This document shows, one piece after another, positions 30,207-31,153 of a DNA stretch of 31,624 bases (position 1 is its first letter; every line of letters starts with the position of its first letter). The stretch comes from Escherichia coli. Lineage in GTDB: Bacteria > Pseudomonadota > Gammaproteobacteria > Enterobacterales > Enterobacteriaceae. The DNA lies in assembly GCF_003334765.1 (NCBI RefSeq), contig NZ_QOWT01000039.1, one strand, 5' to 3'. Below the pieces are notes generated by a model. It did not search any database and was not told the origin of the DNA. It saw only the letters and a list, made by a program, of their open reading frames with translations. A program made the translations under genes and the position numbers.

Positions 30207-30312
30207 ACTGAGAGCACAAAGTTTCCCGTGCCAACAGGGAGTGTTATAACGGTTTATTAGTCTGGAGACGGCAGACTATCCTCTTCCCGGTCCCCTATGC
30301 CGGGTTTTTTTT
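30207..30312 (+). ncRNA. gadY: GadY small RNA, cis-encoded antisense partner of the gadX 3' region
   Basis: Sequence actgagagcacaaagtttcccgtgccaacaggg ... cttcccggtcccctatgccggg plus T8 matches GadY as I recall it. Ends 17 nt before the gadX stop on the opposite strand. Confidence 0.8.
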
Positions 30313-30328
30313 ATGTCTGAGTAAAACT

Positions 30329-31153
30329 CTATAATCTTATTCCTTCCGCAGAACGGTCAGTGCCGTAAAAATTCCCTTGCGCAACAATACTTGCCGCCGA
30401 GTCACGGTTCGACAATCTCTGCGCCGATCGCTCCTGATACTCTGTGGGCGTCATCCCATAATAATTTCGAAAGACGTAAATGAAATACGACACGCTGTGA
30501 TATCCACAGGATACTGCAACTCGCTTAATTGAAAAACCATGTATAACAATAAGTTGCAAAGCACGTTGCATTCTACACTCAGTAAGCAACTGTGAATATG
30601 ATGTCTCTTCTTCGCGCAATTTTTTCTTTAACAGACTTGGACTCATCAACAGCTCGCTGGCGATTCGGGCTAGTGTCCACTCATGGGCGATATTATTATT
30701 GATAACCGTACAAACTCGTGTTCGCATGTTCGGTTGTAAAACGTTCAGAAGCAGCGGTATAAAGTGCTCATCCTCAAGAAAAACAGATAACAACGCAAAG
30801 ATTAATGCTCTTTTACGTAGCATTTCTGCATAGCGAAGATTCTTATTCTGCGATAGTTGCGCAACTTCCTGAAAAACAGGAATATCTCTACTACAGTGAT
30901 GAACGAGTAATGAAGAAACTTTTTTATGTGCATGAAGATTTAATGCCTCCTCCTTGAGCATCGGGAGAAATAATGAAAGCGTGTCCCTTGACACGAATAC
31001 AAAATTTTCAACACACTTATCTACTCGAATTTGGCTTGCATCCGCAAAAACCAGGTCACCGCCATTAAAATAGCGATATTCACCATTAACCATGGTGAGA
31101 ATATATTTATGTCTTGCATACGCAATTAGACAATTCCCATGTAGTGATTGCAT
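30329..31153 (-). CDS. gadX: AraC-family regulator GadX, 274 aa
   Basis: ORF 30329..31153. C-terminal AraC-type HTH. ATG at 31151-31153 (reverse strand). Confidence 0.94.
   Translation of the reverse strand: MQSLHGNCLIAYARHKYILTMVNGEYRYFNGGDLVFADASQIRVDKCVENFVFVSRDTLSLFLPMLKEEALNLHAHKKVSSLLVHHCSRDIPVFQEVAQLSQNKNLRYAEMLRKRALIFALLSVFLEDEHFIPLLLNVLQPNMRTRVCTVINNNIAHEWTLARIASELLMSPSLLKKKLREEETSYSQLLTECRMQRALQLIVIHGFSIKRVAVSCGYHSVSYFIYVFRNYYGMTPTEYQERSAQRLSNRDSAASIVAQGNFYGTDRSAEGIRL

Follow-up and report, generated by a model that had tools for sequence, protein, structure and literature searches.

GadY in an Escherichia coli contig: a full-length small RNA gene opposite the gadX 3′ UTR and its comparison with known antisense systems

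Escherichia coli transcribes GadY, a cis-encoded antisense RNA, from the strand opposite gadX and gadW; the RNA overlaps the 3′ UTR of gadX and pairs with the dicistronic gadXW mRNA (PMC4152358, PMC10057817). The former paper reports co-transcription of gadX and gadW, a requirement of RpoS for gadY expression, and RNase III cleavage following the pairing of GadY with gadXW, both products being stabilised (Opdyke 2011 as summarised there); the latter describes gadX mRNA as stabilised via its 3′ UTR. Cleavage of gadXW persists without RNase III, and another double-strand nuclease has been suggested (PMC3919570). GadY has been reported to bind Hfq (PMC11300174). Silencing of GadY by dCas13a lowered both gadX mRNA and acid survival (PMC10783499); this paper is inconsistent on the nuclease, giving RNase E in the text and RNase III in a figure legend, and RNase III, named in the title of Opdyke 2011, is followed here. 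AppY binds the gadY promoter directly, and its motif, ATGSCWGM, was described as overlapping the gadY −35 (PMC10057817); SdiA made the gadY promoter more active in reporter assays (PMC7286202). Northern blots revealed three forms of GadY, of 105, 90 and 59 nt (PMC4574537); the gene is annotated in K-12 as 106 nt long, the literature name for the same RNA being the 105-nt form.

The window analysed here is a stretch of 31,624 nt of E. coli DNA (contig NZ_QOWT01000039.1), in which a first-pass annotation had placed a plus-strand RNA of about 106 nt whose sequence was taken to be that of GadY. The segment at 30207–30312 (+), 106 nt in length as anticipated, is almost certainly the E. coli small RNA gene gadY, specifying the non-coding RNA of about 105 nt from the acid fitness island. 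Comparison with the annotated gadY of K-12 MG1655 (b4452; NC_000913.3, 3664864–3664969, +), which the first-pass annotation had proposed as the way to check its assignment, gave identity at 106 of 106 bases, so that the assignment was fully borne out. When the whole window was searched with Rfam 15, the GadY model RF00122 matched at 30204–30317 (+) with 150 bits (gathering score, 45; E = 4.1e-32), was covered end to end (model positions 1–114 of 114) and had its consensus matched at every base. An E-value of 4e-32 combined with exact identity to the annotated 106 nt excludes chance, and no evidence ran counter to the identification. All of the sequence-level marks of GadY were present, namely a match to the covariance model, identity to the reference, the expected genomic setting, a terminator and the published motif in the promoter region. 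Judged from these, the gene is an already known one, ordinary for E. coli, with nothing new in the gene itself.

The neighbouring genes were located from the ORF list. The gadX coding sequence, for a 274-aa AraC-family activator of acid resistance, occupies 30329–31153 (−) and equals K-12 gadX (b3516) after an offset of 27842; that of gadW (242 aa) occupies 29233–29961 (−), as also indicated by colinearity with K-12. The region between them is 367 nt long and contains gadY on the strand opposite to both genes. In K-12, the coordinates are 3663890–3664618 (−) for gadW, 3664864–3664969 (+) for gadY and 3664986–3665810 (−) for gadX. The gadX stop codon is TAG at 30331..30329 (−), the reverse complement of 30329–30331, and the last T of gadY at 30312 is 17 positions from the nearest stop base at 30329, with 16 bases between, in agreement with the 17 nt previously noted; the K-12 spacing is the same (gadY end 3664969, gadX begin 3664986, a 17-position offset). 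The interval originally given for the finding, 30207–30331, runs past the end of the RNA and across the gadX stop codon, whose outer base is 30331; it is made up of the sRNA (30207–30312), a 16-nt spacer and this codon. The RNA had further been described as antisense to the gadX 3′ UTR and gadX-gadW intergenic RNA, and here the strand geometry and the published account (PMC4152358, PMC10057817) agree with it. The target region is accordingly 30207–30312 (−), and its complementarity to GadY is perfect because the two are encoded on opposite strands.

The gene order, mdtF-gadW-gadY-gadX-gadA, was colinear with that of K-12 over the last 3.8 kb of the window, from the 3′ end of mdtF to that of gadA. 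Within this 3.8-kb overlap, two substitutions relative to MG1655 were found, 28257 G>A in mdtF and 31326 A>G between gadX and gadA, indicating that the window comes from a close relative and not from MG1655 itself. A stretch of 321 nt around gadY was 100% identical in several human-associated isolates, strain 300709 among them. Just downstream of the gadA stop, at 31463–31505, AACCGAATGCCCAGC and GCTGGGCATTCGGTT form a perfect inverted repeat of 15 bp around a T-rich loop; placed between the promoter region of gadX and gadA, this repeat has the appearance of the gadA terminator.

A putative core promoter for gadY was assigned at 30168–30200 (+) by pattern search, the assignment of the hexamers being inferred. 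It comprises a −35-like CTGATC (30172–30177), a 17-bp spacer and a −10 TATATT (30195–30200) ending 6 nt before +1. Overlapping the −35, ATGGCTGA at 30168–30175 fits the AppY motif ATGSCWGM, as a sequence match only. The whole of 30168–30200 was invariant across five aligned E. coli strains. A generic sigma-70 scan returned no call for this promoter, which is not surprising if it is RpoS-dependent, as reported (PMC4152358). The ATG of gadW is 245 nt from the +1 of gadY, and the gadW and gadY promoters are therefore divergent; Tramonti et al. 2008 likewise speak in their title of "the gadY-gadW divergent promoters". Based on the identity, promoter included, to strains in which GadY was detected by Northern blotting (PMC4574537), we infer that gadY is transcribed in the present strain.

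Minimum-free-energy folding of the 106 nt predicted three hairpins followed by a U-tail, all of them shared with the Rfam consensus: a 5′ stem-loop (hairpin 1) at 30207–30253 (+), a central stem-loop (hairpin 2) with a 7-bp stem at 30258–30278 (+), and a third at 30286–30304 (+). The fold was no more stable than those of shuffled controls (z = −0.73), and the structure therefore rests on the family model and not on energy. The four aligned, near-invariant sequences were too alike to show covariation, the 3 columns at which they differed lying outside the stems. The 105-, 90- and 59-nt forms of Opdyke 2004 reportedly share their 3′ end. If the 3′ end is common, the 5′ ends of the two shorter forms would be expected near 30222 and 30253.

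Hairpin 1 also contains the one element that could suggest a coding function: a GTG at 30227 opens a frame of 10 codons (VPTGSVITVY*), by which the plus-strand transcript would encode a small protein instead of acting as an RNA. This is hardly credible, as every frame of the 106 nt is free of ATG, the GTG has no Shine-Dalgarno-like sequence ahead of it, the frame sits within the hairpin, and the literature consistently calls GadY non-coding and Hfq-binding (PMC11300174, PMC10057817, PMC4574537). The small-ORF reading was rejected for want of an ATG or a ribosome-binding site, leaving GadY as a non-coding RNA.

The third hairpin belongs to a rho-independent terminator at 30286–30312 (+), identified by the terminator scan, the hairpin energy and the Rfam consensus. 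In CCCGGTCCCCTATGCCGGG at 30286–30304, six base pairs, five of them G-C, make up the stem and seven nucleotides the loop, and T8 comes next at 30305–30312; the strong terminator with eight T residues described in the first-pass annotation is thus where it was said to be. The hairpin alone was predicted at −8.8 kcal/mol. A consensus scan of 29900–30450 yielded one terminator-like site, that of gadY, against a mean of 0.3 for the shuffled region. The stem, CCCGG..CCGGG, is near-palindromic, and a minus-strand RNA can form the hairpin too, so that hairpin and T-run might be merely a terminator for the neighbours, for example a bidirectional one serving gadX/gadW, with no separate RNA gene. On the minus strand, however, A8 comes before the hairpin and AAGAGGAUAG after it, without a U-run, and no minus-strand terminator was called between the gadX stop and gadW in the scan of 29900–30450. 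Moreover, the entire 106 nt, not the hairpin alone, equals an experimentally studied sRNA and fills the Rfam model, a discrete plus-strand RNA with its start at the equivalent of about 30207 has already been published for K-12, and co-transcription of gadX with gadW has been reported (PMC4152358). A terminator with no RNA gene is therefore extremely improbable, and the bidirectional reading was rejected on the missing minus-strand U-run. The terminator is best assigned to gadY, and the lack of one on the minus strand would fit read-through into gadW and the reported gadXW co-transcript.

The distribution of the gene was surveyed in complete E. coli genomes. The 106 nt of gadY were present in 5413 of 5426, in every case at 99% identity or higher and on the chromosome. 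Thirteen of the 5426 genomes had no match, and a few had two copies, the 5413 genomes containing 5419 places; such departures may reflect, for instance, absence of the acid fitness island through loss, or duplication. Plasmid-borne copies were considered and rejected, because the three matches of the plasmid search were chromosomes of 4.8–4.9 Mb filed as plasmids and not mobile copies. For a 321-nt query (gadY plus flanks), identity was 95–99% in 3229 of the complete genomes and 90–95% in 15. When the gadW-gadX intergenic regions of five E. coli strains were aligned, the differences were all upstream of the gadY promoter, the stretch between about 30140 and the gadX stop being free of them. 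In GTDB (one genome per species; 100,044 species), three representatives, all Escherichia, carried an exact copy of a 23-mer taken from hairpin 1. These three scored 143–150 bits with the Rfam GadY model, and their differences from the window fell in three columns, all outside the stems. The unchanged gadY core thus appears to have a narrow taxonomic range, with the exact-match scan leaving room for diverged copies in other Escherichia.

This degree of conservation reflects strong purifying selection on gadY. The complementarity of a cis-encoded pair survives any mutation, so that near-invariance of the 106 nt between more variable flanks points to a constraint in addition to cis pairing. Such invariance is among the arguments that can be made for GadY acting chiefly in trans, by CsrA sequestration and sdiA mRNA pairing, and not as a cis-antisense RNA on gadXW; titration of CsrA with up-regulation of pgaABCD (Parker 2017, as cited in PMC10057817) and pairing of GadY with sdiA mRNA (PMC11300174) have both been described. 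However, these effects were mainly seen with overproduced GadY, the invariance can equally be due to the structure of GadY, Hfq binding, the terminator or nuclease recognition, and the cis effect on gadX and gadW mRNA is backed by several independent groups (PMC10783499, PMC10057817, PMC3919570, PMC4152358). We consider a chiefly trans-acting GadY improbable and retain cis-antisense action on gadXW as the main role. The invariance may derive from structural, Hfq-binding, nuclease-recognition or trans-target constraints. An additional, so far undescribed function constraining the sequence is conceivable but unlikely; candidates are more targets in trans, or an element recognised by a specific protein or nuclease other than those already published.

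An insertion near the cis pair was observed in E. coli PSJ-07 (NZ_AP027619.1; locus L004), where an IS1 at 2745–3485 interrupts gadX some 12 nt before its 3′ end and 31 nt past the GadY terminator. Its site is just after the equivalent of window position 30343, and gadX is annotated there as a longer reading frame of 846 nt. The IS1 parts the gadX coding region from the GadY-complementary 3′ UTR and from gadW, a naturally occurring separation of the antisense RNA from its target.

In the listed RefSeq records of E. coli other than K-12 (for example, those of loci L002, L003 and L005), nothing was annotated under gadY, the ncRNA feature being present in the curated K-12 record only. The gene is therefore easily overlooked in routine annotation. 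As a discovery, gadY in this window matters little, since characterisation of GadY goes back to 2004 and the reference genome carries its annotation; the value of the result is mainly one of calibration, the first-pass annotation having been right to pick out a non-coding gene that is invisible to ORF-based tracks.

Other small RNA families were also matched in the window. Two tandem, full-length Rfam AgrB elements (RF02891; gathering score, 40) were found at 14605–14688 and 14836–14919 (+), with 106 and 108 bits, respectively; we take them to be agrA and agrB, the known pair of antisense RNAs at the dinQ locus beside arsR. The sRNA ES205 was matched at 24354–24425 (+) with 105 bits (gathering, 86) and was also seen at the equivalent place in another of the loci compared (L008), and ES036/CssrF was matched at 5787–5827 (+) with 42 bits (gathering, 37.6).

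By analogy with K-12, the following course of events can be proposed for this locus. In stationary phase, gadY would be transcribed by RpoS-containing RNA polymerase, with AppY bound at the promoter. The RNA would then bind Hfq and pair with the gadX 3′ UTR inside the gadXW transcript, creating a double-stranded stretch. Cutting of this duplex by RNase III and at least one other nuclease would split gadXW into more stable gadX and gadW mRNAs, and the resulting increase in GadX would raise transcription of gadE, gadA and gadBC and, with it, glutamate-dependent acid resistance. Upon overexpression, GadY could be expected to have secondary effects in trans, promoting PGA biofilm by titrating CsrA and also pairing with the mRNA of sdiA.

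Compared with known systems, the present gene is closest to K-12 GadY itself (b4452, RF00122), with which it shares the 106 bases, locus, strand, distance to the gadX stop, terminator, three hairpins and upstream promoter region, no difference being found within the gene. OOP RNA of phage lambda (against cII-O) and the type I antitoxins Sok, IstR and OrzO are, like GadY, encoded opposite their targets and form an extended perfect duplex. As in the GadY system, RNase III accounts for part of the processing, and some cleavage persists in rnc mutants (PMC3919570). The outcome differs, since cleavage represses the target in OOP/cII-O, Sok, IstR and OrzO, whereas cleavage of gadXW gives more stable gadX and gadW mRNAs, a positive outcome (PMC4152358). 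SraG (rpsO-pnp), an antisense sRNA to which no function had been assigned before PMC5029454, resembles GadY in being a small RNA gene placed between two co-transcribed genes and running in the opposite direction (PMC5029454), but it differs in locus, sequence and target and has no sequence relationship to GadY.
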